55,233 bases of DNA from Girardia tigrina (taxonomy: Eukaryota): contig MQRK01233649.1 in assembly GCA_001938485.1 (NCBI GenBank), forward strand, positions 1 to 55,233. The letters run 5' to 3'. The notes under the pieces were generated by a model, which was not told the DNA's origin, did not search any database, and worked only from the letters and a program-made list of their open reading frames with translations. Shown piece by piece: positions 2,033 to 52,167 of this stretch. The translations under genes and the position numbers were made by a program. How positions within the stretch are numbered: position 1 is the first letter of the stretch; each line of letters starts with the position of its first letter.

Positions 2033-2900
2033 TTAATTTTTGAAACGCTTCATTGCATTCTTCCGTCCATATAAGCTTTTTTTCTTCATTCTTTCCGCAA
2101 AGTCCTTCCAATACTTTTGAATACTTTGCATAATCTTTTTTAAGAATTTCCTGTAATAGTTCGTTAAATCATAAAAGCTTCTCAAATGTTTTACACATGA
2201 AGGATTCTGAAACTTGCTAATCGCATCAATCTTTGTCTGATCTGTTTCTATGCCATCTCTACTGATCACATATCCCAAAAACTTTGTCTTTTCCACCAAA
2301 AAGTGATATTTATTTGGATTAATTCTCAGACCCGATTGCTTTATTTTACTAAATACGTGTTCAATTCGTTTGATGTGTTCTTCCTTGTCTTTTGCGAAAA
2401 TTAAAATATCGTCTAAATACACAACTGCCTCTTTCCAATTTAATTCACCCAAAACTCTTACCATCAGTTCTTGAAACGTTGCTGGTGCCACCGCAATTCT
2501 AAATGGCATTCTCTTGAAACAGTATTGGCCATCCTTTGTTGAAAATGCTGTTTTGACTTTTGATTCATCTTCAAGTTCCACTTGATGGTATGCGTTTCCT
2601 AAATCGATTGTGCTAAAATACTTTGCACCATTTAGTGTATTCAACATTTCCTCAATATTCGGCATTGGGAATGTCGGTCTAACGGTGATTTTATTCAATT
2701 GTCGAAAATCTACACACACTCGAATGTCCTGTTTCTCCTTTTCCAAACATAAATTAAAGGGAAATTCCACGGTGAACTGCATTTCTCTATAATATCGTTT
2801 TCTTCATAATTTCGAATAATATCGTCTAGTTTTTCCTTGAAATGTTTTGGTTGTCGATATGGTTTCACTAAAACCTTTTCTCCATGCGTTTCGATCTTGT
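2033..2900 (-). pseudogene. Gypsy reverse transcriptase (frameshifted)
   Basis: RVCVDFRQLNKIT, FSTIDLGNAYHQV, KTAFST, MPFRIAVAPATFQ, VVYLDDILIF, KFLGYVIS. Confidence 0.95.
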
Positions 2901-2906
2901 GTTTGT

Positions 2907-3670
2907 TCAGTGACGTCCTTCAATATCCCATTTGTCGGCCATAAATATTGATTTAAATTGTGTTAAAAGTTCCATTAGTTGGTTGTCAATTTTGTTTTCA
3001 AACAGCTCTTTTATTCTCCTCAATCTATCCTCGTCTGATGGATTGTCTCGTATTACCAGTAACTCATCAGTATTTGATGGTTCTCTCTTTAACTTAATCC
3101 TGAATTTGTCCAAGAAATCTATTCCTGCAATCATTTCTGAATCTAAATCTTTGACCACAAAGAAATCCACTGTTTTCTGCATTCTTTCAATTATCACTTT
3201 AAGTTGAACAATACCATAGTTTATAAGTTCTGAATCATTCGCACAATGTATTCGTCTTTTAGTTTCTTTGATCTTGACATCTTTCATATCTTTAATTACT
3301 TCTGTTTTAATAACGTTGACTCGAGCTCCTGTATCTAGCAGGCAATTGATATTTTTATTCTTTATTCGGAACTCTATACTTGGTCACCTTTCAATTCTTT
3401 ATAATTTATGTTAAACTTCGGTAATATCAAAACATCTTCAGCATTCTTTTTAATTTTTTTCTCATTTTCTATATCCATATTAGCACATATTTCATCGTGT
3501 CCTTCAGGTTCATTATCTAATCTGCACATCTCCAGAGGAATATTTTCAAACACATCATCAAACATACAATCACAAACACATTCATACATACAATCAATCA
3601 TACACCTACATTGAGTTCCTATTGTAGCACACTGATCACATCTCCCTGTGATCGTGCGTCCTCGTTTCCC
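2907..3670 (-). pseudogene. Gypsy pol N-terminus and aspartic protease
   Basis: IEFRIKNKNINCLLDTGARVNVI (about 3310-3375) and MIAGIDFL; a Cys-rich leader follows the frameshift site. Confidence 0.85.
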
Positions 3671-4785
3671 TGATCATTTCTGAATTTTCTGTTACCAACG
3701 TGAGATTCCAGTCTTTTTTCATCTTCTCTTCTATACGTTCCTTCAGAATAGTCCCCTTTTCTAGAGTCTTCTCTTATGTACAATTCATCATCTAGTTCGT
3801 CCACTTCTGCTACTGGATATTTCCTATTCATGTATGTTGGCCGTTCTCTATACCGTTGATTTGAGTAATTTTGCAAGTTATTCCATTGATTATTTCCATT
3901 ATTCCTTTTCCATTGATCACGCACCCTAAATCTATTAGGGTTTTCATAACACTGTGTTCTTAAATGCCCTTTTCTATTATAATGACTACACTTCACATTA
4001 TGGCACTCTCTTCTAACATGTCCTTCTTCGTGGCATGCCCAACAGGTAATTTTTCGAACTTTAAAATTTCTTCTTGTTTCTTGTTCTATGAATTTCTCGT
4101 TCTGTTGCCTTGGTGTTCTTTTTTTATTTTCTACTGTTCTCCATTCATTTTCTCTTTTTGTGTTATATACCGCTACAGGAGCATTTCTTTTCTTTTTATC
4201 AAATTTTAACATTCTCGTTTGAATATCTTCAATCTCTTCAGATTTCTTGACATCTCTAACAGCTATTTCTTTCTGTACGTTTTCGTCATCTATCAGATTA
4301 GCGTAAACTAAATTTGATATTTCCTTTTTACCCAACTTTTTCTCAATTAACTTTTCAATGATTTCATCAGCCTTTCTAAATATTATTGTTGGGTCGCTAG
4401 ATCCAATTCTCATTTCTACCAGTTCCTTCATTAGATCCAGGAGAGATTTCTCTTTTGAAAATGCGGATCTTAGTTTCTCTTCACATGTTTCACCTGCCGC
4501 TGCTTCATATTTGATTATGGCATCCGGAGTCATATATGGTGTTGCTAATAAGATTTTCCTCTCCTCTGAACATCCCATTATCTTTGCATACCTGTTAAAG
4601 CTCGTTATGAATGCCTCAACTTTTGTTTCTGATCCATCCAAAATCTTCGGACCTCTGATGTTCGGAATCACGTGGTCGTGTGTCGCCATATTAAGAACAC
4701 CAACATGGGTTTTCAAACTTTTATTCTCATTACAATCAGAATTGTCTTTTGGACAACTCTCAGCAAAACTCTCGTCATTCGACAT
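3619..4785 (-). CDS. gag: Gypsy Gag (388 aa) with two zinc knuckles
   Basis: Intact ORF; CWACHEEGHVRREC and CSHYNRKGHLRTQC (second knuckle has C>Y); lies directly upstream of pol. Confidence 0.9.
   Translation of the reverse strand: MSNDESFAESCPKDNSDCNENKSLKTHVGVLNMATHDHVIPNIRGPKILDGSETKVEAFITSFNRYAKIMGCSEERKILLATPYMTPDAIIKYEAAAGETCEEKLRSAFSKEKSLLDLMKELVEMRIGSSDPTIIFRKADEIIEKLIEKKLGKKEISNLVYANLIDDENVQKEIAVRDVKKSEEIEDIQTRMLKFDKKKRNAPVAVYNTKRENEWRTVENKKRTPRQQNEKFIEQETRRNFKVRKITCWACHEEGHVRRECHNVKCSHYNRKGHLRTQCYENPNRFRVRDQWKRNNGNNQWNNLQNYSNQRYRERPTYMNRKYPVAEVDELDDELYIREDSRKGDYSEGTYRREDEKRLESHVGNRKFRNDQGNEDARSQGDVISVLQ
3627..3670 (-). promoter_or_regulatory. -1 programmed ribosomal frameshift signal (slippery site G GGA AAC plus downstream hairpin)
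   Basis: G-GGA-AAC in the gag frame at 3670-3664, a 6-nt spacer, then the stem GCAC-GATCACA/TGTGATC-A-GTGT. The -1 frame reads through without stops into the MIDCMYEC pol ORF (3601). Confidence 0.8.
4671..4688 (-). promoter_or_regulatory. Primer-binding site (TGGCGACA...)
   Basis: TGGCGAC immediately follows the LTR 3' end, which is defined by the solo-LTR copies. The priming tRNA was not determined. Confidence 0.7.
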
Positions 4786-4946
4786 CGTTCTAAATTGATA
4801 ATTTTTTGTTAATGTTTGTTAATAAAGAATTATTCGAACAAATTTTTCATTATTTTCTGATTTTATTTTTAAAATTCAAATTTTGTAGTTTTAGTATTAA
4901 ATTTTATTTACATATTAATTTTATTTAAAATTTATTTTATGTAAAG

Positions 4947-6964
4947 TGTTGGGTGGGATATTGTTGGTGCTGGATTTTATATTATTATTTAAATTTTATT
5001 AATTTAAATTCATGTGTTTCTTGTTATGCTTTAGCATCTTAGTTTATTTTGACCCAACATATTATTTAGATATGTCTCTCCTCTAAGGGCCTCTAACTCA
5101 CACTTATTAGAGATCCATATCGTAACCCATCAACCCCATCTGGCCCTTTGATCTCGCCAGTGAAGTTGATGAAGTACCTACTGGGGTCCTACATTATATT
5201 TAAATTTATTAGGTCTATGAAAGTTGACTTATGCCACTTCTATTTAATTAACTGATTATCTTATTTTTTCTCAACATGTTTCCTTTTTATATGATTATTA
5301 TATTGCTTATTATGAGTTTATCAATTTCATATTAAAGTTAAAAGAACATGAACAAAACTTTGCATATTAAAGATTTATTAAAAATTGAAATCATCCAATA
5401 AGTCAATTAATCNNNNNNNNNNNNNNNNNNNNNNNNNNNNNNNNNNNNNNNNNNNNNNNNNNNNNNNNNNNNNNNNNNNNNNNNNNNNNNNNNNNNNNNN
5501 NNNNNNNNNNNNNNNNNNNNNNNNNNNNNNNNNNNNNNNNNNNNNNNNNNNNNNNNNNNNNNNNNNNNNNNNNNNNNNNNNNNNNNNNNNNNNNNNNNNN
5601 NNNNNNNNNNNNNNNNNNNNNNNNNNNNNNNNNNNNNNNNTAGCAATGGATTGTTCATTTACATTAAAGCAAGGAGTCTCTTCTAATTCTAAGTCACTTT
5701 GCCGGGTATGTTTCTGCTTCTTTTGGTATGAATCGGGATGGTCTGAACCTTGAATCTCTTTTAATTACATTTCTGCTTGTTGAAATAGTTGCGCCTTTCG
5801 TTTTCTTTGCTGGCGCCTTTTTTTTGTTCGGCTCATTTTGCTGGTCATTGATGCCATCATATCTTCCTTTGTGATAGACGCATGAATTGTAGAAGATGAA
5901 GCAAGGTTTACATCTTTCGCATCCATGGGTTCTTTTGCTGCAATTCTAGAAGCAGTCTCCAAGATCATCGCATGATCTTCTTGGGAAATTTTTTTTATTA
6001 TCTTTTTGTGGTACTCCAACATATTTTGTTGAATCCTCGACTCGGTAATTTCAGCTTGTAAGGCCTTTATTTTTGTTGCGATTACAGATATTTTTCCACC
6101 ATCGGTTTGTGTACGGATAAAGAAACGGAAATTCTTCTGTATTCCTTGAGCTCTGTTGTTTTTTCGGACAACTCTTTTGTATTTCTGTCGATTTCTTCTC
6201 TCCTTTTCTGAAGCTCACGAACAACCCTCTATCTTCTTTTTCATAAATCGGTCGATTCATTACTAAATGAGGATGAGAAGTGGATTCATTGATGTAATAA
6301 AACAAAAAAATAGTTGATGGAGATAAGTAAAGACAAATCCNNNNNNNNNNNNNNNNNNNNNNNNNNNNNNNNNNNNNNNNNNNNNNNNNNNNNNNNNNNN
6401 NNNNNNNNNNNNNNNNNNNNNNNNNNNNNNNNNNNNNNNNNNNNNNNNNNNNNNNNNNNNNNNNNNNNNNNNNNNNNNNNNNNNNNNNNNNNNNNNNNNN
6501 NNNNNNNNNNNNNNNNNNNNNNNNNNNNNNNNNNNNNNNNNNNNNNNNNNNNNNNNNNNNNNNNNNNNNNNNNNNNNNNNNNNNNNNNNNNNNNNNNNNN
6601 NNNNNNNNNNNNNNNNNNNNNNNNNNNNNNNNNNNNNNNNNNNNNNNNNNNNNNNNNNNNNNNNNNNNNNNNNNNNNNNNNNNNNNNNNNNNNNNNNNNN
6701 NNNNNNNNNNNNNNNNNNNNNNNNNNNNNNNNNNNNNNNNNNNNNNNNNNNNNNNNNNNNNNNNNNNNNNNNNNNNNNNNNNNNNNNNNNNNNNNNNNNN
6801 NNNNNNATTAAAAGTTTCTATTTTTTAATTAATTAATTATAAATTATAATATTTTTTATTTTTTGTTTTTTTAGATTTAGGGAGTTTTTCCTTTGCCTGC
6901 CTCGGTGCCGGTGCAATGAATAGGCTCGGGACTGACGCGAAGGAAAAACTTACGGGTCCCAACA
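4947..6964 (-). mobile_element. TGTTGGG..CCCAACA element of about 2 kb with 4-bp TSD (large solo LTR or Ginger-like non-autonomous element), copy 1
   Basis: AAAG TSD at 4943-4946 and 6965-6968; 7-bp terminal inverted repeat; near-identical inverted copy at 45626-47671. Confidence 0.9.
5641..6260 (-). pseudogene. Coiled-coil/basic (NLS-like) protein carried by the 2-kb element, copy 1 (disrupted)
   Basis: MNRPIYEKEDRG...MLEYHKKIIKK...SRTKKRRQQRKRKAQ; its disruptions differ from those in copy 2. Confidence 0.6.
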
Positions 6965-26600: not shown

Positions 26601-27494
26601 AACGAAACTTTCCCGACGGTCTCCGAACATCTATCTATTCCTGAACCTGTATCATAAATAAATAAAGTAAAGTAAAAATTTAGATTAGCCACTGTGCAAA
26701 ATGTTAATGATAGAGCAAAACTTATTTTATTTTCCTGTCCTAATTTTGTATGGGTTATATCACTATAAAACTAAACTCAAAGTGAGGTAAGTAACGTTTA
26801 TAGGATTTACCCAATTTTCAAAGTTTATTCTACGCATAATATATTGTTTTGTAGACCGGTTGTTGGACATTTGTGTTGAATAATTACAAATAATATATTA
26901 CCTGAAGGTAATAATTTATATTTCTTTAAAATAGGCATTTTTCTTAATTTGTTTAATAATCATAATTATTCTTTAGAATTTGCGATCATCCACCAAGTCA
27001 AACTATTTAAAATTATTTTGTTTTGCAAATTAATGCCGTTTAAATTTATAAAACTGTCAAAACATATTAATTCAATTTTTTATTAAGATATGTAATTTTT
27101 TTTTGTATTTGTGTAAATTTTCTAAATGTGTGTGGGGTTAGATGCTACAGCGTCTTGTAAAATGTGGTTTGCTATCATTTAATAAAAATCAATGTTTTAC
27201 TAAACGTTTTATATGTAGTTTGATAATAAAATACTCTAATGAGACTCTTATAATTTTATTAATTTTATTTAGCAAAAAATTATCCCAGGCTTGTCCCCTG
27301 GATACGCCCTTAACACATTTAACTTAATTATCTGCATTTAAAATTTATTTTTTTTTATTTTTTGTATTCAATTTATTTTTTGACAAAATGATACTTAACA
27401 TTTCGGGGTCATTAATTGAAGAATAAACGTTTTCGCTCTTTTTTGAACACCACTTCCTGCGGATAGTTTATAACCTAAATATTTTATTTTAGAA

Positions 27495-28430
27495 ATGGAT
27501 CACTTTCCAAATTATTACAAAGTTTGGGGAAAGGTTAATTTTGGATTGCTGACCCTTCTTAGCTTTTTAGGAATAATTGGTAATTTCCTAGTTTTTATGA
27601 TAGTTCTAAAGGACAGAGCCATTCGAAATTTTACAAAAGTTTTACTTATCAATAATTGTATTTATGATTTCTTATGTATCATTTTTCCGGGAATTAATTT
27701 GATGTATTTTTTATTTCAGTTATCAGACATGAAACTAGGTAATCCGCTTTTATGTGGAATATTGAATATTTTTATATATATGTTTTCGTATGGACCTATA
27801 CTTTGTACATCTTTAGTGTCTGTAGAAAGATTTCTGATGGTTCACTTTCCAACGAGTATTTTTCTTAGATCATTGAAGCTGTGGCACGGAATTATTGTCG
27901 TCCTTTTAATAACAGTTTTTAACTTTGGTTTTTTTGGAAATTATTATCAAAGTATTGATATATCTATATTATGTTTTGCTATTTCAATATTCTATTTGGG
28001 AAATAATTGTTCTATTCTGATTATATATGGTATTGTACCCTTTTTGATTAATTTAGTATCTGCTGTATACCTGCTTAAAGTTATAGGAAAAAGTCTCAAA
28101 ACTTCAAACCAAACAAATGTGAAGGACAACATTGTCAATCGACAGAGGTGGACAATCAAAACGACCATCGTAGTTTCTCTAAACTCTTTATTTACATATA
28201 CTCCTTACATAATTTTATTATTTTTACATAATACTAGGTATATATCACCAACATACAATATACAAATTTTTACTTATTCAGCTAATATTTTATTAATTAG
28301 TAATTCTTGCATAAAAATTTTTTTCTATATGTTCACAAAACATTTTCGGTTGAGTTTGTTGAAGCTAGTTTGTCCGGAAAGATACTCGACGAGTCAAGCC
28401 CAACTGACCACCATCCAAAGAAATACCTAA
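27495..28430 (+). CDS. Rhodopsin-like (class A) orphan GPCR, intronless, paralogue 1
   Basis: 311 aa with seven hydrophobic segments; TM1 GN, TM2 D, TM3 Cys and SVERF (DRY equivalent), TM5 P, TM6 TPY, TM7 NSCIKIFFY, helix 8 FR. Confidence 0.92.
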   Translation: MDHFPNYYKVWGKVNFGLLTLLSFLGIIGNFLVFMIVLKDRAIRNFTKVLLINNCIYDFLCIIFPGINLMYFLFQLSDMKLGNPLLCGILNIFIYMFSYGPILCTSLVSVERFLMVHFPTSIFLRSLKLWHGIIVVLLITVFNFGFFGNYYQSIDISILCFAISIFYLGNNCSILIIYGIVPFLINLVSAVYLLKVIGKSLKTSNQTNVKDNIVNRQRWTIKTTIVVSLNSLFTYTPYIILLFLHNTRYISPTYNIQIFTYSANILLISNSCIKIFFYMFTKHFRLSLLKLVCPERYSTSQAQLTTIQRNT

Positions 28431-40980: not shown

Positions 40981-41800
40981 TATTTTAATTTTAAAGCAAA
41001 AAATATTGGTTATATTTGATCGGTCATTACAATTAATTAATAATTTTCTTTCAAATAATATATTAATTTAATATAATTTTCATATATCTCTCTTTTCAGT
41101 AAAAGTAAAAAAAATTCCCTTCTTTTTTATTATTATTCGAAAATAATATTATTTTATTTTTCAACAAACGGAAAGAATTTAAGTTTTAATTATTTTTAAA
41201 TGGTATCAGATGAATAATATTAATCGAACATTAAAATGTTTTAAATATTTAACTTTCGTTATTGCTTTAAAAAACCGATTTTTATAATGAATGATTAAAA
41301 AATAATAACAAAATATAAATATCGCATTTTTTTGTAAAGCAAAGTTGAGTTAATTTTTACATTCGATCAGAGAGAAAAACAAAATAAAATTGCAAGGAGA
41401 CTTTTTGTAATTTTAATAACATGATTTTATTAATAATAATTATGCGAACAAATTTTAATTTAAAAACATGAATCAGAAAAATTAATTACAAAATATTGCG
41501 TCCTTAAATATTTTTTTAGAAGTATTCTTTTTATTTTTCTTATACTCTTTTTTCCGATTGACCAAAATACATTGTAAATTAATTCTATTTATTTTAGATT
41601 TTTAATTTTTGGTATTAGATTTATTATTTTGATAAAATTATACTTAATGTAAATGTACGGATGTGTCACGTTAAAAGTTTATGTCTATTGTGATATTGTA
41701 AATCCTATTTTTCTTTATATTTTTTTATTTAAGAATTTTAAGGTATCTTTGTAGGGGAAAAATGGGCATTCTCCGGCACCCCCCGGAGGGATCGTAACTA

Positions 41801-42035
41801 GTTACCGCGCGGTTACCGTGGCAACGTAACCAGTTACCGCGCGCGGTTACCCTGGCAATGGTCACTGTTGCCATGGCAACGGTCGCGGTTACCATAGTAA
41901 CGGTTGCGATCACCTTAGCAATGCTTCTGATTGGTTCCTTGGTTCCCTAGCAACGGTCACGATTACCTAAAAACACTTCTGATTGGTCAGTAACCACCTA
42001 GCAACGGTGGCGATCACCACAATGGTTACCGTAAC
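41801..42035. promoter_or_regulatory. Array of RFX X-box-like palindromes (21-bp period) with two inverted CCAAT boxes
   Basis: GTTACCGTGGCAAC 41812, GTTACCCTGGCAAT 41846, GTTGCCATGGCAAC 41867, GTTACCATAGTAAC 41888, GTTCCCTAGCAAC 41942; CTGATTGG at 41927 and 41979. The motifs are read directly; function is inferred. Confidence 0.6.
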
Positions 42036-42251
42036 CATGATACATTACATTTTAATATTATATATATATATATATATTTAATATGGATATATAGTCGAAA
42101 ATACCTTAGATATCATCACTGCTATTTCTAAAACCATGAAAATACCTTAAAAATCATCGAAAGCATGTAAAAACCATCAAAATTACACAAAAAGTGCAAA
42201 AAATCAATTCTGAACATGTGCTAATCAATACTGCACATGTGCTTATCAATA

Positions 42252-42491
42252 CTATACATGTGCAAGTGTGTGAAATAATAAGTTCACAATTGTACAAAGT
42301 GCAATGTATTCATGTTTTAATATAAAATAGTGTAAAGTGGGGTTGAACACACATATGGTATAAAGAGCGAAGCAAGCAAAATATTGAAAATCTGCCTGAA
42401 CACATTGATAGTAACTCATATATGAATATTCAGAATATGATCTTAGATTTTTGAAAAAATCAATAAGTGGTGCTTTTTCGAACATATGCAC
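42252..42491 (-). CDS. Small Tyr/Cys/Phe-rich ORF in the left TIR (one repeat unit)
   Basis: Open in both TIRs; counterpart of 49374-49709. Confidence 0.3.
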   Translation of the reverse strand: MHMFEKAPLIDFFKNLRSYSEYSYMSYYQCVQADFQYFACFALYTICVFNPTLHYFILKHEYIALCTIVNLLFHTLAHV

Positions 42492-45400
42492 ATTATATAT
42501 GCAAATATTATAGATATGTATTATATTATGATATTATACTATGTTATCAGCCAATGTCGTGCCAACCATTTAAAACATGGCCAAGGAGATATCGTCATGC
42601 ATTCATCATGTCAACGTATTGTATATATCATGTCAACGTATTGCATTCATAATGTCAACATAATGTACAGTTGAATATTTTGTATCTTATATAGTTTTAT
42701 ATTATATATTTTATATGTTATTTTATATCTTATATATTTTTATATTATATATTTAATATGTTATTTTCTATAACAAAAGTTGTTTTTTACAAGTTTATGA
42801 ATAAAGACAGGTATAAGACAAGTATTTTTAACAAACATTTTTTTTACATATGTACAATATTTACAAGTATATCATTCACAAAAGATAATATCCATGAGGT
42901 AATGTACTTATTCCATCTGACAAAATATGTCGTTTATCGTCAAACCAGTCAAGGCTTTTCTTTCGCATTATGGTATTCTCTTGATTAGGTCCTTCGAATT
43001 TTACAATGATTATAAACAACACCAATTCGAAAAAGAATATATTCAAAGAAATAATGTCGAAGATGATTCAACAATGTCCTTTATACAGATGTTGTATGGC
43101 AAATTTTCATAGTTCGCAAAATTTTCATGATACAATGCATCATTACTATGTTTATGCTTTCAACTGATGCGAGTATTACATTTGTCCAGTGTGTCAAAAT
43201 GCAAGTAGTGGTGACTATCATTAATTTTATGATAACCACAAGGACCATTTGTTTGACTTTTCAAACAAGTCTAAGAAGACTATTTTCCAATCATCAGCGT
43301 ATCCAGCAATTGAGAAGAATGTTTCAATTGAGAAAAATAGTTCAAATAAGGTAAAAGTTCCTTTAAAACATGTAAATGTTACAAATTTTTCAATGCAGAT
43401 ACCTGTTTCAAATACAGTCAACGCAACCAAGGCAGCCAATGCTTCAAATATTACATCAAAACGTGCAAATGATACAAATATCAAAAATATTCCATCAAAA
43501 TGTTCAAGACAGAGACTAATTCATAAAGCTTCATTGAATAAGAAGGTGCGTCAATATGTTATAAAGGCTCCCCAGGCTAACCTAGACAGCCTTGGCAGCC
43601 TAGGCTGCAAGGTTACAAGTCTCCATGAGTTTCTGGAATATTCCAAGAAGGAAACTATGGAGATTCTACAAGATAACATGGTTGATTTCAAGGCTATCAA
43701 AGTCAATCTTAAATTTGAGGCAACATTCACCAATGTCGATGATGAATTATCACATAGAGCCTTCAAGACAAAAAATAGGCCAATATTAGAATCTGATGAT
43801 ATTTTGGAGTGGTTCAGTGAAGAACATACCCAAATAATAAAGGAAGCCAATGAAAGCAAGGAAAAGAAGAGTGGATGATATATTGCATCTGTAAATCAGT
43901 TGATAATTCATGTTCATAAATACTCATCAATGAGAGGTAGCTCCTACATTCTGCTTCCTGAATGGATAGTCAAGAAAAAGGCATGCATCAATGCTCACAA
44001 TGAAAACAACATGTGCTTCAAGTATGCTATGCTGTCGAACTTCGTGGAAGATCAACAAACTGCAAAACGAGTATCAAAATACAACAATCTGCAGTACACA
44101 TATGACTTCAACTGCATAAAATTCCCACCAAGCCTTAAAGAAGTCACTAAATTTGGAAGCCACAACAATGTATCAATCAACATATTTGGATTAGAGAATG
44201 AAAAATTTTATCCCTTACTTGTATATAAGGAAGAACTGGAAGATCATATGGATTTGCTCTTCCTAGATGATGGAGAAAAGAGACACTTCATCTGGATCAA
44301 AAAATTTGAACGTCTTCTTAGATCCCAAATATCGAAACATCATGGAAGTATCGAGATTTGTAAAGGATGCTTTACATATTTCAATAGAGATGATGCAACA
44401 AACAAGTATGAAGAACACAAGGCCTATTGCAATAACATTCATTGTATCAGAGCGGAATTTCCCAAGGAAGATTATATCGAATTCAAAGAATATGAAAAGA
44501 TGCAGAAAGTTCCCATTATAATATATTGTGACTTTGAAGCTATTCTAAGCCCAATCCAAACAAGCAATCCGGATCCACAACTTAGCAGTACGACAGCATA
44601 CCAGTATCATGAGCTATCATTATACTGTATGTATGCATTGGGTATTATCAAGGAGCCATTTTTATATAGAGGTTCAGATGCAGCAGAACATTTTATGCAA
44701 CGTATGGAGACTTATGCCCACACAATTAAAGACATGTTGCAGCAACACAAGTTCAACATGATAATGACATGGCAAGAAAAATGTGAATGGAACATGGCAA
44801 CACAATGCTACTTGTGTGAAAAACCATTCACAAAAGACAATTACAAAGTCAAGACCATTGTCATTTTACTGGAAAATATTGAGGAGCAGCATTCAATAAC
44901 TGTAATTTGCGATGTAAAACATCTATAAATGTTCCTGTTGTTTTCTACAATTTTAGTGGATATGACTCCCATTTCATAGTAAGAGAATTGGGAAAAATCA
45001 AAGGGAACATAGATGTTATTCCAAATAGTGAGGAAAAATACATCACATTTACCAAGCATGTGGAAAGAATTAAGCTCCTATTCATCGATAGTTTCCGGTT
45101 CATGTCATCATCGTTGCATAGCCTTGTCAAGAATCTTCCAGCAGATGAACTAAAGGAAACAAAAAAGTTCTTCCCAAATACATTTGATTTGGTCAAAAGG
45201 AAAGGAGTATTCCCATATGACTATATAACATCATGGAGATAGCTGGATGAAACAACATTGCCAGCAAAAGAGGCATTTTACAACAAATTGAACGACACCG
45301 ACATAAGTGATGCTGATTATCAACATGCACAAAATGTCTGACAAGCTTTCAAATGCCAAACACTTGGAGAATATAGTGATGTATACCTCAAAACAGATGT

Positions 45401-45625
45401 GCTGCTTCTTACGGATGTCTTTGAGAGCTTTCGGGATGTGACACTTAAGAGCCACAAGTTGGATCCAACTCATTTCTTTATATCACCAGGTATGAGTTGG
45501 GCAGCAATGTTGAAATATGCAGGCATAAGGCTTCAAATCCTGAAAGATTACGACATGATCCTCATGCTGGAAAAAGAAATCCGAGGTGGAATCTGTCAGT
45601 CTATTCATCGGTATGGTGAGGCAAA

Positions 45626-47671
45626 TGTTGGGACCAGTGAGTTTTTCCTTCACGTCAGCGTCGGGCCTATTCATTGCACCGGCACCGAGGCAGGCAAAGG
45701 AAAAACTCCCTAAATCTAAAAAAACAAAAAATAAAAAATATTATAATTTATAATTAATTAATTAAAAAATAGAAACTTTTAATTGGTTTTGATCCTTGGA
45801 TCCTGTTGATTTGAATATTTTCTTGTGGGAATTTGATGGCCTGATTTGTTGACGTGGGTTTGATCGGAATTTTGGCCATCTCCAGGTTGTTTCTACCTGA
45901 GGACTGTTGACTTAGTGATGGATGATTGAAAGTTGACTGTGAGAATTGTCTGCTTGCTGGTTCTGTGAGTTTTTGTGACGAAAGATTGGTATGAATTCGT
46001 TTGAATTGTACACTCTACCAGAAATTTTTTATCATCAAATATATTTTAAACAAAGAATTTGACTTGGTAAATTTTACCTTTTATTTTTTTTGTTGTTGAT
46101 GGAGGTTTTGAGATGTCTTCATGGTTGCCGATCAATCGATGGGTAACGGCAGGTGCTGATAGTGCCTGCCGAGACTGTTGACGATCAGGCAGTAAATATT
46201 TCTCGAGGATATTTGAAAACTACCAACCTGTCAATAAGGAACGGCGGGTTCTTTTAGTGCCTGCCGGGCCTGTCGAGGATCTGGTTGTGAAAAGACGTTA
46301 TCGTTAAACTGAGGATTTGTCTTTACTTATCTCCATCAACTATTTTTTTCGTTTTATTACATCAATGAATGAACTTCTCATCCTAATTTAGTTAATGAAT
46401 CGACCGATTTATGAAAAGGAAGATAGAGGGTTGCTTCGTGATCTTCAGAAAAGGAGGGAAGAAATCGACAGAATTACAAAAGAGTTGTTCGAAAAAACAA
46501 CAGAGCTCGAGGAATACAGAAGAATTTCCGTTCCTTTATCCGTACACAAACCAATGGTGGACAAATATATGTTATCGTAACAAAAAATAAAGGCCTTACA
46601 AGCTGAAATTACCGAGTCGAGGATTCAACAAAATATGTTGAAGTACCACAAAAAGATAATAAAGAAAATTTCCCAAGAAGATCCTGTGATGATCTTGGAG
46701 ACTGCTTCTAGAATTGCAGCAAAAGAACCCATGGATGCGAAAGATGTAAACCTTGCTTCATCTTCTACAATTCATGCGTCTATCACAAAGGAAGATATGA
46801 TGGCATCAATGACCAGCAAAATGAGCCGAACAAAGAAAAGGCGCCAGCAAAGAAAACGAAAGGCGCAACTATTCCAACAAGCAGAAATTGAATTAAAAGA
46901 GATTCAAGGTTCAGACCATCCCGATTCATACCAAAAGAAGCAGAAACATACCCGGCAAAGTGACTTAGAATTAGAANNNNNNNNNNNNNNNNNNNNNNNN
47001 NNNNNNNNNNNNNNNNNNNNNNNNNNNNNNNNNNNNNNNNNNNNNNNNNNNNNNNNNNNNNNNNNNNNNNNNNNNNNNNNNNNNNNNNNNNNNNNNNNNN
47101 NNNNNNNNNNNNNNNNNNNNNNNNNNNNNNNNNNNNNNNNNNNNNNNNNNNNNNNNNNNNNNNNNNNNNNNNNNNNNNNNNNNNNNNNNNNGACTTATTG
47201 GATGATTTCAATTTTTAATAAATCTTTAATATGCAAAGTTTTGTTCATGTTCTTTTAACTTTAATATGAAATTGATAAACTCATAATAAGCAATATAATA
47301 ATCAAATAAAAAGGAAACATGTTGAAAAAGAATAAGATAATCAATCAATTAAATAGAAGTGGCATAAGTCAACTTTCATAGACCTAATAAATTTAAATAT
47401 AATGTAGGACTCCAGTAGGTACTTCATCAACTTCACTGGCGAGATCAAAGGGCCAGATGGGGTTGATGGGGTACGATATGTATCTCTAATAAGTGTGAGT
47501 TAGAGGCCCTTAGAGGAGAGACATATCTAAATAATATGTTGGAGAGACATATCTAAATAATATGTTGGGTCAAAATAAACTAAGATTCTAAAGCATAACC
47601 TGTTAACATAAATTTAAATAAATAAAATTTAAATAATAATATAAATTCCAGCACCAACAATATCACCACCA
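45626..47671 (+). mobile_element. TG..CA element of about 2 kb, copy 2, inserted in pPolB with 4-bp TSD CAAA
   Basis: CAAA at 45622-45625 and 47672-47675; removal restores YGEANNKYMKNYDPSK; inverted copy of 4947-6964. Confidence 0.92.
46395..46976 (+). pseudogene. Coiled-coil/basic protein of the 2-kb element, copy 2 (one in-frame TAA at 46578; runs into the N gap)
   Basis: ORFs 46395-46580 and 46635 onward are in one frame, separated by a single stop that reads CAA in copy 1. Confidence 0.65.
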
Positions 47672-48789
47672 CAAACAACAAATACATGAAAAATTATGAT
47701 CCATCCAAGGCATCTTCATACATAACATACTTGGATGCCAACAATCTGTGTGGATTGGCAATGAGTGTTCCATTACCTTTTGATAATTTTAAAACAGTGG
47801 ATCAACCGAAAGAAATTCGAATAGAAAAACTGAATCCTAATAAAGATGTGGGTTACATATTGGAAGTGGATGTTGATTATCCAAAATCCATCCATTCAAG
47901 ACATGAGCAGCTACCTTTCCTGTCTGAAAGCAAATGTCCACCAAATGGAAAACATAATAAGCTGCTCTGTCACTTGGAAAATAAATAAAAATATGTGGCC
48001 CATTACATCAATCTACAACAAACTGTAAAGAATGGGCTCATAATCCCAAAAATCTATCGTGCACTTCAGTTTAATCAATAAAAAATGGCTTAAGCCATAT
48101 ATTGACTTTAACACCAATCTGAGGACCAATGCCAAAAATGACTTTGAAAAGGATCAGTTCAAATTGTAAAATAACAGCGTTTTTGGTAAAACGATGGAGA
48201 ATATCCGCAACAGAATCAACCTCGAGCTGGCATGTGATTGGAAGCGGCAAAGAAACTCATTAACAAATCAAATTTCCACAGTAGCGTCATATACACTGAA
48301 AACTTTGTGAGTTTACACATGCTGAAAACATCACTGACGTTTAATAAACCGATATATGTGGGGATGTCAATTCTGAATCTATCCAAGACCTTGATGTAGG
48401 ACTTCCACTATGACATCATGGTCCCTAAATTCAACCACAATTTACAGCTAATGTATATGGATACTGATAGCTTTGTCTATCAGATTCATACAGAAGATCT
48501 GTTTGCGGAGTTTTTTTCAAATGGCTACAACATATGGATATCTCAGATTATCTAAAGGACCATCCAAATTATTGAATATCAAATTGAATATCAAAATGTC
48601 CTTGGGAAGTTTAAGGATGAAGTCAATGGTCAAATCATCTCTAGATTCGTGGCACTACGATCTAAGATGTATGCCATTGATGTGGATGGTAAGATCAAAA
48701 AGAAGACAAAGGGAGTTCAACTGGCAACGTTAGCAAACCAAATCGGATTCCATGATTATATGACAGTGCTACGGGAACAATTCAATATA

Positions 48790-49906
48790 ATTTCTTAAAT
48801 GCAAAGGATCCAATCAAGAGAACATCAAGTCTCCACATTAATGATGCAGAAGAAAAGCCTTGACTGGTTTGATGATAAACGACATATTTGTCAGATGGAA
48901 TAAGTACATTACCTCATGGATATTATCTTTTGTGAATGATATACTTGTAAATATTGTACATATGTAAATAAATGTTTATTGAAAATACTTGTCTTATACC
49001 TGTCTTTATTCATAAACTTGTAAAAAACCACTTTTGTTATAGAAAATAACATATAAAATATATAATATAAAAATATATAAGATATAAAATAACATATAAA
49101 ATATATAATATAAAACTATATAAGATACAAAATATTCAACTGTACATTATGTTGATATTATGAATGCAATACGTTGACATGATGGATGTATGACGATATC
49201 TCCTTGGATACGGCCATGTTTTAAATGGTTGACACGATATTGGCTGATAACATAGTATAATATCATAATAAAATACATATTTATAATATTTGCATATATA
49301 ATGTACATATGTTCGAAAAGCACAACCTATTGATTTTTTCAAAAATCTAAGATCATATTCTGAATATTCATATATGAGTTACTATCAATGTGTGCAGTCA
49401 GATTTTTCATATTATGCTTGCTGCGACCTGTATACCATATGGGCATTCGACCCCACTTTACACTATAATACACAAGATATCAATAAAGCACTATGTTTTG
49501 ATTTTTTCGAGAATCTAAGATCATATTCCGATTATTTACCTATGGATTACTATACATGTGTTCAGGCAGATTTTCGATATTTTGCTTGCTTCGCCCTTTA
49601 TACCATATGTATGTTCGGCCCCACTTTACACTATATTATATTAAAACATGAATTCATTGCACTTTGTACAATTGTGAACTTATTATTTCACACACTTGCA
49701 CATGTATAGTATTGATAAGCACATATGTATCCTAGACAGCCTGCCTAGGTTTAGTGCAGTATTGCTTAGCACATGTGCAGTATTGATTTTTTGCACTTTT
49801 TGTTTAATTTTTATGGTTTTTACATGTTTTCGATGATTTTTAAGGTATTTGTCATGGTTTTAGAGATAGCAGTGATGGTTTCTTAGGTGTTTTCGACTAT
49901 ATATCC

Positions 49907-49946
<40 letters not shown>

Positions 49947-50433
49947 TGTTATGTATCATGGTTACGGTTACCATAATACTTAAGTTATGGTTAGGCTGAG
50001 GTACATTAGATGATTATACATATGTTATGTATTATATTGATGCATGCTTGAAGTACAATAGGAGTTTTTACATGTAAAATAAAATGTTATGTATCTTGGT
50101 TACGGTAACCATGGTACTTGTAATTATACTTGTGTACATTAAGAGATTCATGATGTATTGTTTGATTGTTAACAACATACATATATCATATGGGTTTCAG
50201 ATATATATATACGAAAAAATAGATTTTTGAGCACTTTTTTGAAAATTTCAGAAATTTTCGAAAAAATCGATTTATCAGCACTTTTATGAAAATGTTAGGG
50301 AACCAATCAGAAGCGTTGCTAAAGTGATCGCGACCGTTACTATTGTGATAGGGACCGTTGCCATGGTAACCGCGTGGCAGCTAGTTATGAGCCCCTTCGA
50401 GGGGGTGCCGGAAAATGCCCATTTTACCCCTAC
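48790..50433 (-). repeat. Right terminal inverted repeat (about 1.64 kb), including the pPolB 3' end
   Basis: Inverted match to the left arm, plus an extra tandem unit of about 168 bp and an extra segment at about 49975-50290. Confidence 0.9.
49374..49709 (+). CDS. Small Tyr/Cys/Phe-rich ORF in the right TIR with an internal repeat of about 56 aa
   Basis: 111-aa ORF; the unit DFF.NLRSYS.Y..M.YY.CVQ.DF.Y.AC..LYTI..F.PTLHY is repeated in frame. Confidence 0.35.
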   Translation: MSYYQCVQSDFSYYACCDLYTIWAFDPTLHYNTQDINKALCFDFFENLRSYSDYLPMDYYTCVQADFRYFACFALYTICMFGPTLHYIILKHEFIALCTIVNLLFHTLAHV

Positions 50434-51228
50434 TATGTTTATTTTTATTTGCCTCTTGGGAGGTATATTTTATTCCTTAACCTTTAGTTAACACATTTTC
50501 CTTTTTTTAATAGTCAAAAAAAACAGATCGAGAAAAGTGAAATGTCAATTTTATTTTCGATAAGAAAAAGACTTGTCAAGAAAAATAAATTATTTATGAT
50601 TTCCATTTCCACATATTACGAAAGAAATGAAAATTGAAATTCAAAATTTAAATAAAATAAATTAAAAATATTAATTAGTTAGATAGAAATATTGTCTAAT
50701 ATAAAATTATTACGTCAAACTTACCATTACAATTCTGTCCAGAATTCTAATAACAGACTACGATAAATTCCATTCCATTTTCTATTATTTCAGTCAAAAC
50801 AAACAATTTATCACTTCCAAATCATCCATATTATTCGAAAAATTTATATATCACTAATCAGTTCAAAGTTTTGATTCTGTTATTACAAAATATTGTTATT
50901 GCAAATTATTGGATAAAGAAGATTGACAACAATTTTGTTATATCACTGTTATTTAAAACTGATCTGCTGATTAATCAGATGTATATTATTTTTAGTTTTG
51001 TTATTAATACATTTTAATAACTAAAAGTCATTATTTTCATTACTAAAATACTATTGTTATAATCTAGCTGCTTTCCTTTGTGTACCATTTCATAGAACAA
51101 TCAAAGGAAATCCTTTAGCATTATACACTTAACATTGCGGTGTCATTGATTGAATAATACACATTTTCGCTCTTTTTTGAACATCACTTCCTGTGGAAAG
51201 TTTATAACCTAAATATTTTATTTTAGAA

Positions 51229-52167
51229 ATGGATGACTTTCCAAATTATTACAAAGTTTGGGGAAAGGTTAATTTTGGATTACTGGCCCTTCTTAGTTTT
51301 TTAGGAATAATTGGAAATTTCCTAGTTTTCATGATAGTTCTAAAGGACAGAGCCATTCGAAATTTTACAAAAGTTTTATTGATAAGTAATTGTATTTATG
51401 ATTTCTTGTGTATCATTTTTGCGGGAATCAATTCGATGTATATTTTTTTTCAGTTATCAGACATGAAACTAGGTAATCCGCTTTTATGTGGAATATGGAA
51501 TATTTTTATGTATGTGTTTTTGTATGGACCTATACTTTGTACATCTTTAGTGTCTGTAGAAAGATTTCTGATGGTTCACTTTCCCACAAGTATTTTTCTT
51601 CGATCATTGAAGCTGTGGCACGGAATTATTGTCGTCCTTTTAATAACAGTTTTTAACTTTGGTTTTTTTGGAAATTATTATCAAAGTGTTGATGTATTCA
51701 TATATTGTTTATCTATTTCAATATTCTATTTGGGAAATAATTGTGCTATTCTGATTATATATGGTATTTTACCTTTTTTGATTAATTTAGGATCCGCTGT
51801 TTACCTTCTTAAAGTCATAGGTAAAAGTCTTAAAGCTTCAAACAACACAAATGTGAAGAACAACATTGTCAATCGACAGAGGTGGACAATAAAAACGACC
51901 ATCATAGTTTCTCTAAACTCTTTATTTACATTTACTCCTTACATAATTATATTATTTTTATATAATACTGGATATATTTATCCCACATATGTTGTACAAA
52001 TTATAACTAATTCAGCTAATATTTTATTAATTAGTAATTCTTGTATAAAATTTTTTTTCTATATGTTCACAAAACATTTTCGGTTGAATTTGTTGAAGCT
52101 AGTTTGTCCGGGGAGATACTCGACGAGTCAAGCCCAACTGACCACCATCCAAACAAATACCTATTAA
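51229..52167 (+). CDS. Rhodopsin-like (class A) orphan GPCR, intronless, paralogue 2
   Basis: 312 aa; about 37 substitutions versus 27495-28430; flanks are also homologous (about 51125-52600 vs 27390-28880). Confidence 0.92.
   Translation: MDDFPNYYKVWGKVNFGLLALLSFLGIIGNFLVFMIVLKDRAIRNFTKVLLISNCIYDFLCIIFAGINSMYIFFQLSDMKLGNPLLCGIWNIFMYVFLYGPILCTSLVSVERFLMVHFPTSIFLRSLKLWHGIIVVLLITVFNFGFFGNYYQSVDVFIYCLSISIFYLGNNCAILIIYGILPFLINLGSAVYLLKVIGKSLKASNNTNVKNNIVNRQRWTIKTTIIVSLNSLFTFTPYIIILFLYNTGYIYPTYVVQIITNSANILLISNSCIKFFFYMFTKHFRLNLLKLVCPGRYSTSQAQLTTIQTNTY

Follow-up and report, generated by a model that had tools for sequence, protein, structure and literature searches.

Here we asked whether the array of RFX-like X-boxes and CCAAT boxes in the terminal inverted repeats (TIRs) of one mobile element in Girardia tigrina is a real feature and what it might do. 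The window, the whole stretch of DNA that was analysed, is 55,233 nucleotides long (contig MQRK01233649.1). An initial annotation had placed the boxes, and we found its box coordinates, the 21-bp spacing, the CCAAT sites and the right-arm boxes at 50315, 50336 and 50357 with the motif at 50303 all to be correct (Table 1). The gaps between successive left boxes are 34, 21, 21 and 21 bp; CTGATTGG occurs at 41927 and 41979, and CCAATCAG at 50303 in the right arm. The right end does mirror the left in having an array with 21-bp gaps, but this is shorter, with three boxes and one CCAAT box. The description of the boxes as 14-bp palindromes holds fully for 41867, the sole perfect one, the five left boxes being self-complementary at 10, 8, 14, 12 and 6 of 14 positions. 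The island is GC-rich in AT-rich DNA, as had been said (GC is 0.53 for 41751-42035, but only 0.19 over the 500 bp leftward and 0.26 inward).

Table 1. Coordinates of the element and its terminal motifs in the window
Feature	Position	Strand	Remarks
Degraded Polinton/Maverick-type element, TIR-pPolB-TIR	41751..50434	.	by comparison of ends with other copies
Target-site duplication, left copy, 6 bp	41745..41750	.	5/6 identical to right copy
Target-site duplication, right copy, 6 bp	50435..50440	.	
Left TIR arm, ~1.2 kb	41751..42971	+	innermost part repeats the pPolB 3' end in inverted orientation
Sub-terminal C-run/G-run hairpin region	41768..41800	+	hypervariable among copies
Core X-box array, 14-bp boxes at 41812, 41846, 41867, 41888, 41909	41812..41922	.	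four boxes fit the strict RFX consensus
First inverted CCAAT (Y) box	41927..41936	+	
Between the CCAAT boxes: X-box variant of 13 bp (41942), degenerate unit (41962)	41942..41974	+	degenerate consensus only
Second inverted CCAAT (Y) box	41979..41988	+	
Distal 13-bp degenerate X-box	41993..42005	+	degenerate consensus only
Protein-primed DNA polymerase B gene (pPolB), broken	43054..48935	+	several stops and frameshifts, one insertion
Unrelated ~2 kb repeat inside pPolB	45626..47671	.	includes a 215-N gap; second copy inverted at 4952-6964
Right TIR arm	48841..50434	-	starts within the last ~95 bp of pPolB
Right-arm array, shortened: X-boxes at 50315, 50336, 50357 and CCAAT box at 50303	50303..50370	-	only 50357 strict

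Boxes were scored against the strict (RTNRCC N1-3 RGYAAC) and degenerate (RYYNYY N1-3 RRNRAC) RFX consensus sequences given in the cited part of PMC2375033. The strict consensus is matched by 41812, 41846, 41867, 41888 and 50357, which are all five strict sites of the 55-kb window, every one of them in the TIRs; boxes 41909 and 50336 match neither published consensus in the window copy. Sites that the initial annotation had called partial, at 41942 and about 41990 (in fact 41993), are present but fit the degenerate consensus only, as do 41962 and 50315; the window holds 77 degenerate sites. When 41751-42035 was shuffled 2000 times with dinucleotides preserved, the mean was 0.011 strict sites (4 observed) and 0.0085 CCAAT boxes (2 observed), and no shuffle reached either observed count. 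The motifs are real, but the test says nothing on whether they work, because any repeated unit beats such shuffles.

The array was found throughout a large family. The genome assembly contains 4,219 exact terminal 17-mers, 16,643 X-box pairs exactly 21 bp apart and 2,744 X-CCAAT-X modules, with the reversed-pattern control scoring 0 for both patterns. The number of elements is uncertain, in the low thousands, because some contigs are duplicates; 29 pPolB 3' pieces are 0.92-1.0 identical in pairwise comparison (median 0.955). We took the first 40 plus-strand termini listed, found by the terminal 17-mer only, skipped some near-duplicates and kept 38 distinct ones. Eighteen were too short (<110 nt) for a box count, and all 20 of at least 110 nt carry at least two strict X-boxes. 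Over all samples, 48 of the 50 termini of at least 200 nt have at least two strict boxes and 44 have TGATTGG. Right half-sites 17-25 bp apart are separated by 21 bp in 240/268 cases and by 24 bp in 22/268. Both the motif and the 21-bp phase are therefore kept across family copies, a check that had been proposed for this locus. The number of X-box units differs among copies, and one subfamily keeps both boxes and the spacer length although the 7-bp spacer itself is different. A general claim of helical phasing was rejected, since the signal beyond the 21-bp class is weak (resultant 0.20) and 15- and 34-bp gaps are common.

We compared the ends of the element with those of other copies. The left end in the window is one base short of their 5'-AGTAG terminus, and the right end matches them; in a TIR search, 29 of 29 other loci had an A at the position missing from the left end of the window copy. 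A delimitation with a GTAG end and a 7-bp target-site duplication (TSD) was rejected, as the same 29/29 loci start with AGTAG or AATAG. The 6-bp TSD is perfect around copies L081 and L071 and matches at 5 of 6 positions in the window copy; none is evident for copy L072. These three are short, internally deleted copies retaining both ends (L081:57-896, L071:49-5167, L072:46-1900). A candidate for a full element, L070, was rejected as a truncated TIR adjoining a gypsy-type element; the latter (L070:4144-10000) encodes a chuvirus-like fusion glycoprotein (PF24664, E=8.5e-54). The two arms of the window element (1.2-1.6 kb) are 85-90% identical in two main blocks. Among 42 termini the sub-terminal stretch comes with 29 distinct linkers. 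Folding of 41751-42040 gave z=-2.25, with 4/200 shuffles equally good.

The broken pPolB was the sole gene found in the window element. It matches PF03175 (E=6e-8), and the pPolB region of copy L060 matches PF02945. With a natural ORF of copy L102 as query, 5,069 homologues were found at E<=1e-30; these relatives are at most 56% identical, and many are annotated in insects and spiders. Once the inserted repeat is subtracted, the element measures ~6.6 kb. That repeat starts with TG, has a CA end near 47659 and may be LTR-like. When searched with 180 ORFs from 12 full-size Polintons (three own and nine foreign), the window element yielded no integrase, major or minor capsid, ATPase or protease, the only matches being pPolB and its inverted copy. 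The same ORFs were run against 106 family loci (384 kb) and found other genes only in L054, outside the terminus, together with integrase-like matches in L070 (gypsy) and L057.

With Polintons/Mavericks (adintoviruses), as described in the cited part of PMC8097293, the element shares a pPolB of the PF03175 type, long TIRs with 5'-AG(T) ends and a 6-bp TSD. Intact vertebrate Polintons are 12.7-24.6 kb long. The window family differs from Polintons further in the integrase, capsid, ATPase and protease that were not found in it, in ending with AGTAG rather than (AGT)2, in having the pPolB 3' end inside the TIR, in its thousands of termini and in the X-box/CCAAT array. Judged by this gene content, the window element is a non-autonomous, polymerase-only Polinton derivative. 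Bidna-like Vesanto virus is comparable in having ITR-bounded segments of 3.3-5.8 kb, some of them encoding a PolB homologue, but the cited part of PMC8363768 does not describe it as integrating.

Gene order was examined in further copies, namely the top matches to the window, which biases these counts toward close relatives. The pPolB 3' end runs into a TIR in 22 of 26 informative copies and into unrelated DNA in the remaining four (four further copies were too short or gapped), and a TIR precedes the pPolB 5' end in four of six (three further were too short). Twelve stretches inward of the mid-TIR were inspected for a second segment with a shared TIR: one held pPolB, three were TIR pieces, two were nearly all N, and six had no match to the element. 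From these flanks the X-box family looks polymerase-only. The last ~95-190 bp of pPolB fall within the TIR and have a mirror copy upstream of the gene (window 41751-50434; L087-L115; L039-L061), which could let a read-through transcript pair with itself.

Full-size Polintons with integrase, DJR capsid and ATPase occur in the same genome (G000 C234723:60214-76479, C220222:18106-31932, C222998 and C197927). Their pPolB is only ~30% identical to that of the X-box family, and their TIRs start with AGTAGT, the first 166-191 bp being self-complementary and ending in ACTACT. We regard them as plausible integrase donors for the polymerase-only family. Two termini of the X-box family, L054:7058 and L157:5668, fall either within a full-size Polinton or at most ~160 bp away from one, which in a repeat-rich genome may be chance.

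The initial annotation had also proposed looking for the array in other Polinton TIRs, and there it failed to appear. Neither strict X-boxes nor CCAAT boxes were found in 4/4 full-size Polinton TIRs of the genome. The array and the full GTTRCCNNRGYAAC site were likewise absent from 102 foreign pPolB loci (80 metagenome and 22 viral, 785 kb), most of which lack ends, only L256 and L266 having clear terminal repeats, so that their negative result carries little weight. Scans of viral contigs with the window pPolB piece, with P0001 or with the phased X-box pattern gave no match. As far as seen, the array appears specific to the X-box family. It is a real feature, a family-wide RFX/NF-Y-like module in the ends of a putative polymerase-only Polinton derivative. 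Foreign loci L182 (3230-3456) and L232 (1750-1810) have GTTAC-type repeats just after the pPolB stop, at the contig end, with 12 in 250 bp in L182; we note this as a lead only.

Random erosion of the X-boxes among copies had been named as the outcome that would speak for a plain minisatellite. We collected 208 boxes from 63 termini, picked by their spacers alone to avoid circularity. All nine box variants present in at least three termini agree with a published RFX consensus, versus 25 of 47 singletons (p=0.008); for the strict consensus alone the figures were 8/9 and 11/47 (p=0.0004), and the degenerate consensus alone gave p=0.06, all of these p-values overstating independence because recurrent variants descend from few ancestral units. 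Six variants found in exactly two termini were excluded. A random single change retains the fit to either consensus 56-74% of the time. In the eight recurrent 14-bp types, extra alleles number 0 at RFX-fixed and 7 at degenerate positions, compared with 23 and 28 private changes (p=0.035), and the per-position test was not significant (1/7 vs 5/7, p=0.10). Spacer positions 1-3 are invariant at 97-98%, matching the fixed box positions, which is compatible with neutrality because homogenisation alone would yield it. The shared variants thus stay within the RFX consensus, against random erosion, but the spacers are equally conserved and the variants share ancestry. We consider the evidence for selection as an RFX site suggestive, not decisive.

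The CCAAT units were also compared. ATTGG is intact in 92/101 of them and is followed by two pyrimidines in 91/92, while the bases beyond vary freely. NF-Y boxes follow an RRCCAAT flank rule, and the same 91/92 units have an intact CCAAT with a purine-purine 5' flank. The end of RGYAAC lies 29-32 nt away from the central A in CCAAT in 82 of 93 CCAAT boxes, a geometry that probably arose once. It recalls the MHC class II X-Y enhanceosome (RFX5/CREB/NF-Y), where, in the cited parts of PMC4381081 and PMC4889920, an X-box is followed by a CCAAT box at ~30 bp and the linker from CCAAT to the next box varies in sequence. For MHC II sites the RFX5-CCAAT distance peaks at 29 bp, with edges defined differently from ours (PMC4889920, cited part). 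There is one X-box there and many here, and the resemblance would be convergent at most.

Host genes for both cognate factors of the RFX/NF-Y reading are encoded in the genome, which bears out that part of the initial annotation. In a PF02257 profile search, 32 candidates in the genome were scored and gave six matches of three sequence types, none of which lies in the element family. The host RFX DNA-binding domain is identical at 53/62 positions to that of human RFX1 in PDB 1dp7, and an NF-YA gene is present (PF02045).

The reading that we favour, at a probability of roughly 50%, is that host RFX and NF-Y use the outer TIR as a platform, which would work as promoter/enhancer of pPolB. We prefer it because X-box and CCAAT are a known activating pair and because RFX1 and RFX3 bind the AAV ITR. 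Phased X-boxes are followed inward by inverted CCAAT boxes, with pPolB directly inside the left TIR and no other gene; since this single gene faces inward from the left TIR, a promoter is needed there or in flanking DNA. RFX dimers would load along one face of the helix (21 bp being two turns), NF-Y would bind ~30 bp from an X-box, and the complex would open chromatin and drive inward transcription. The element would then copy itself by protein priming, and a full-size Polinton, which has the same AGTAG end and 6-bp TSD, would provide the integrase in trans. As it lies 1.0-1.25 kb upstream of the pPolB start in the window copy, and ~2.7 kb in copy L059/L060, the array would be no core promoter by itself.

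Several published systems bear on this reading. In the cited part of PMC5760533, RFX1/3 bind the AAV ITR at its D-sequence as well as EF-C/EP sites in the enhancers of HBV and polyomavirus, and they regulate expression, so RFX binding at a viral ITR is already known. Those are single sites in mammalian viruses, shown by EMSA, whereas here a tandem array of putative RFX sites with CCAAT boxes sits in an integrating invertebrate element. CCAAT boxes beside X-boxes usually signal activation (PMC7498320 and PMC4381081, cited parts), and a lone degenerate X-box is not predictive in Drosophila (PMC2375033, cited part). The NF-Y-driven promoters of LTR12/ERV9 likewise belong to a mobile element with CCAAT boxes and are active in germ cells and embryos, but this is a retroelement LTR, and the cited part of PMC11802806 reports no RFX array in it. 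NF-Y is tied there to germ cells and LTR12, and to cell-cycle promoters too in the cited part of PMC4889920. By analogy, ciliated or germ cells would be one option among several for use of the switch, and proliferating cells another.

An extended version of the favoured reading, which we think unlikely as a whole, would make the element a one-gene TIR-pPolB-TIR transposon that parasitises the integrase of full-size Polintons. A convergent MHC-II-like RFX/NF-Y enhanceosome would switch its polymerase on in RFX-rich cells (e.g. the male germline), hence the thousands of copies. The >16,000 seeded phased X-box pairs would titrate RFX in the host and change the control of genes close by, the GPCR next to the window copy being one example.

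Other explanations were weighed against a host RFX/NF-Y switch for pPolB. The array could be a neutral or structural minisatellite, in which a 21-bp unit was amplified and homogenised by template switching between TIRs and resembles RFX and NF-Y sites by chance. The spacer is indeed conserved as much as the box, unit number differs among copies, the array is missing from 4/4 full-size TIRs, and palindromic GC-rich units are common at replicon ends. We nevertheless hold this unlikely: two independent canonical motifs co-occur at plausible spacing, recurrent changes avoid the fixed positions whereas private ones do not, and the adjoining sub-terminal stretch is hypervariable in the very same copies. 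Binding of the repeats by an element protein seems improbable, whether that protein is pPolB, through its Cys/His-rich N-terminus, or comes in trans from a full-size Polinton as an integrase or some other factor. The relatives P0018, P0033 and P0003 do have C2H2 fingers, one ORF of the full-size Polintons gives weak HTH and zinc-finger matches, the conserved spacer would suit a longer site, and GTTAC-rich repeats directly follow pPolB in L182, with one similar site in L232. Yet the pPolB N-terminus of the family has no Pfam match and its ESM Atlas matches (0.82-0.84) are at chance level; no PF02257 match falls in the family (among the six genome-wide, from 32 candidates), the TIRs of the putative helper Polintons themselves lack the array, and the CCAAT boxes would stay unexplained.

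Host RFX and NF-Y might also serve mainly as auxiliaries of protein-primed initiation, like NFI and Oct-1 in adenovirus, an idea raised in the initial annotation. Both ends do carry the array, no more than 250 bp in from the terminus, and the gene-less short TIR-TIR copies L081 and L071 retain it. Adenovirus requires a fixed core-to-NFI spacing, but in the X-box family the distance from the end to the first box is 46-77 nt for 60/66 termini (SD 6.7, continuous spread) and 86-106 nt for the other six, and because it varies freely an origin role is less likely. The adenovirus ITR is a precedent for a protein-primed linear replicon that has host-factor sites within its end, with NFI at nt 23-36 in the cited part of PMC6410123; that stretch is hypervariable here, which weakens the proposal, and we give it little credence. 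It is very unlikely, finally, that host RFX binds in order to repress or to mark against silencing, keeping pPolB off until there is replication stress, for example. RFX1/3 have repression domains and have been suggested to protect against methylation (PMC5760533, cited part), and CpG is not depleted in the termini (median o/e 1.13, n=60). However, 24/60 spacer departures are CpG transitions, so the copies appear methylated, and X-boxes with CCAAT neighbours usually mean activation.

To our knowledge, gene switching and cell type are largely unstudied for Polintons. A literature search, with Repbase and subscription journals outside its scope, turned up no publication linking RFX or X-boxes to Polinton TIRs and no prior description of a polymerase-only or non-autonomous Polinton. 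If RFX binds, the family would supply an animal genome with a very large stock of RFX sites, bearing on cilia and germline regulation. Separately, a polymerase-only Polinton at high copy number would demonstrate that partner elements can divide self-synthesis and integration between them. The family also offers a precise and cheap target: natural oligos can be used, and the host RFX domain is almost the same as one that has been crystallised with DNA.

For enhancer donation to host genes, an idea that would draw on copy number and one neighbouring gene only, the neighbour is an intronless rhodopsin-family GPCR ORF (51208-52167). The right TIR end (50434) lies ~795 bp upstream of its first Met (51229). 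A paralogue at 27474-28430 is 91% identical and has no X-box upstream. Elsewhere in the window, 2033-4818 on the minus strand contains ORF pieces of a retroelement (reverse transcriptase and zinc finger), and locus L067 contains a duplicated 523-aa ORF (759-2330 and 4630-6198) built of repeated HTH domains.
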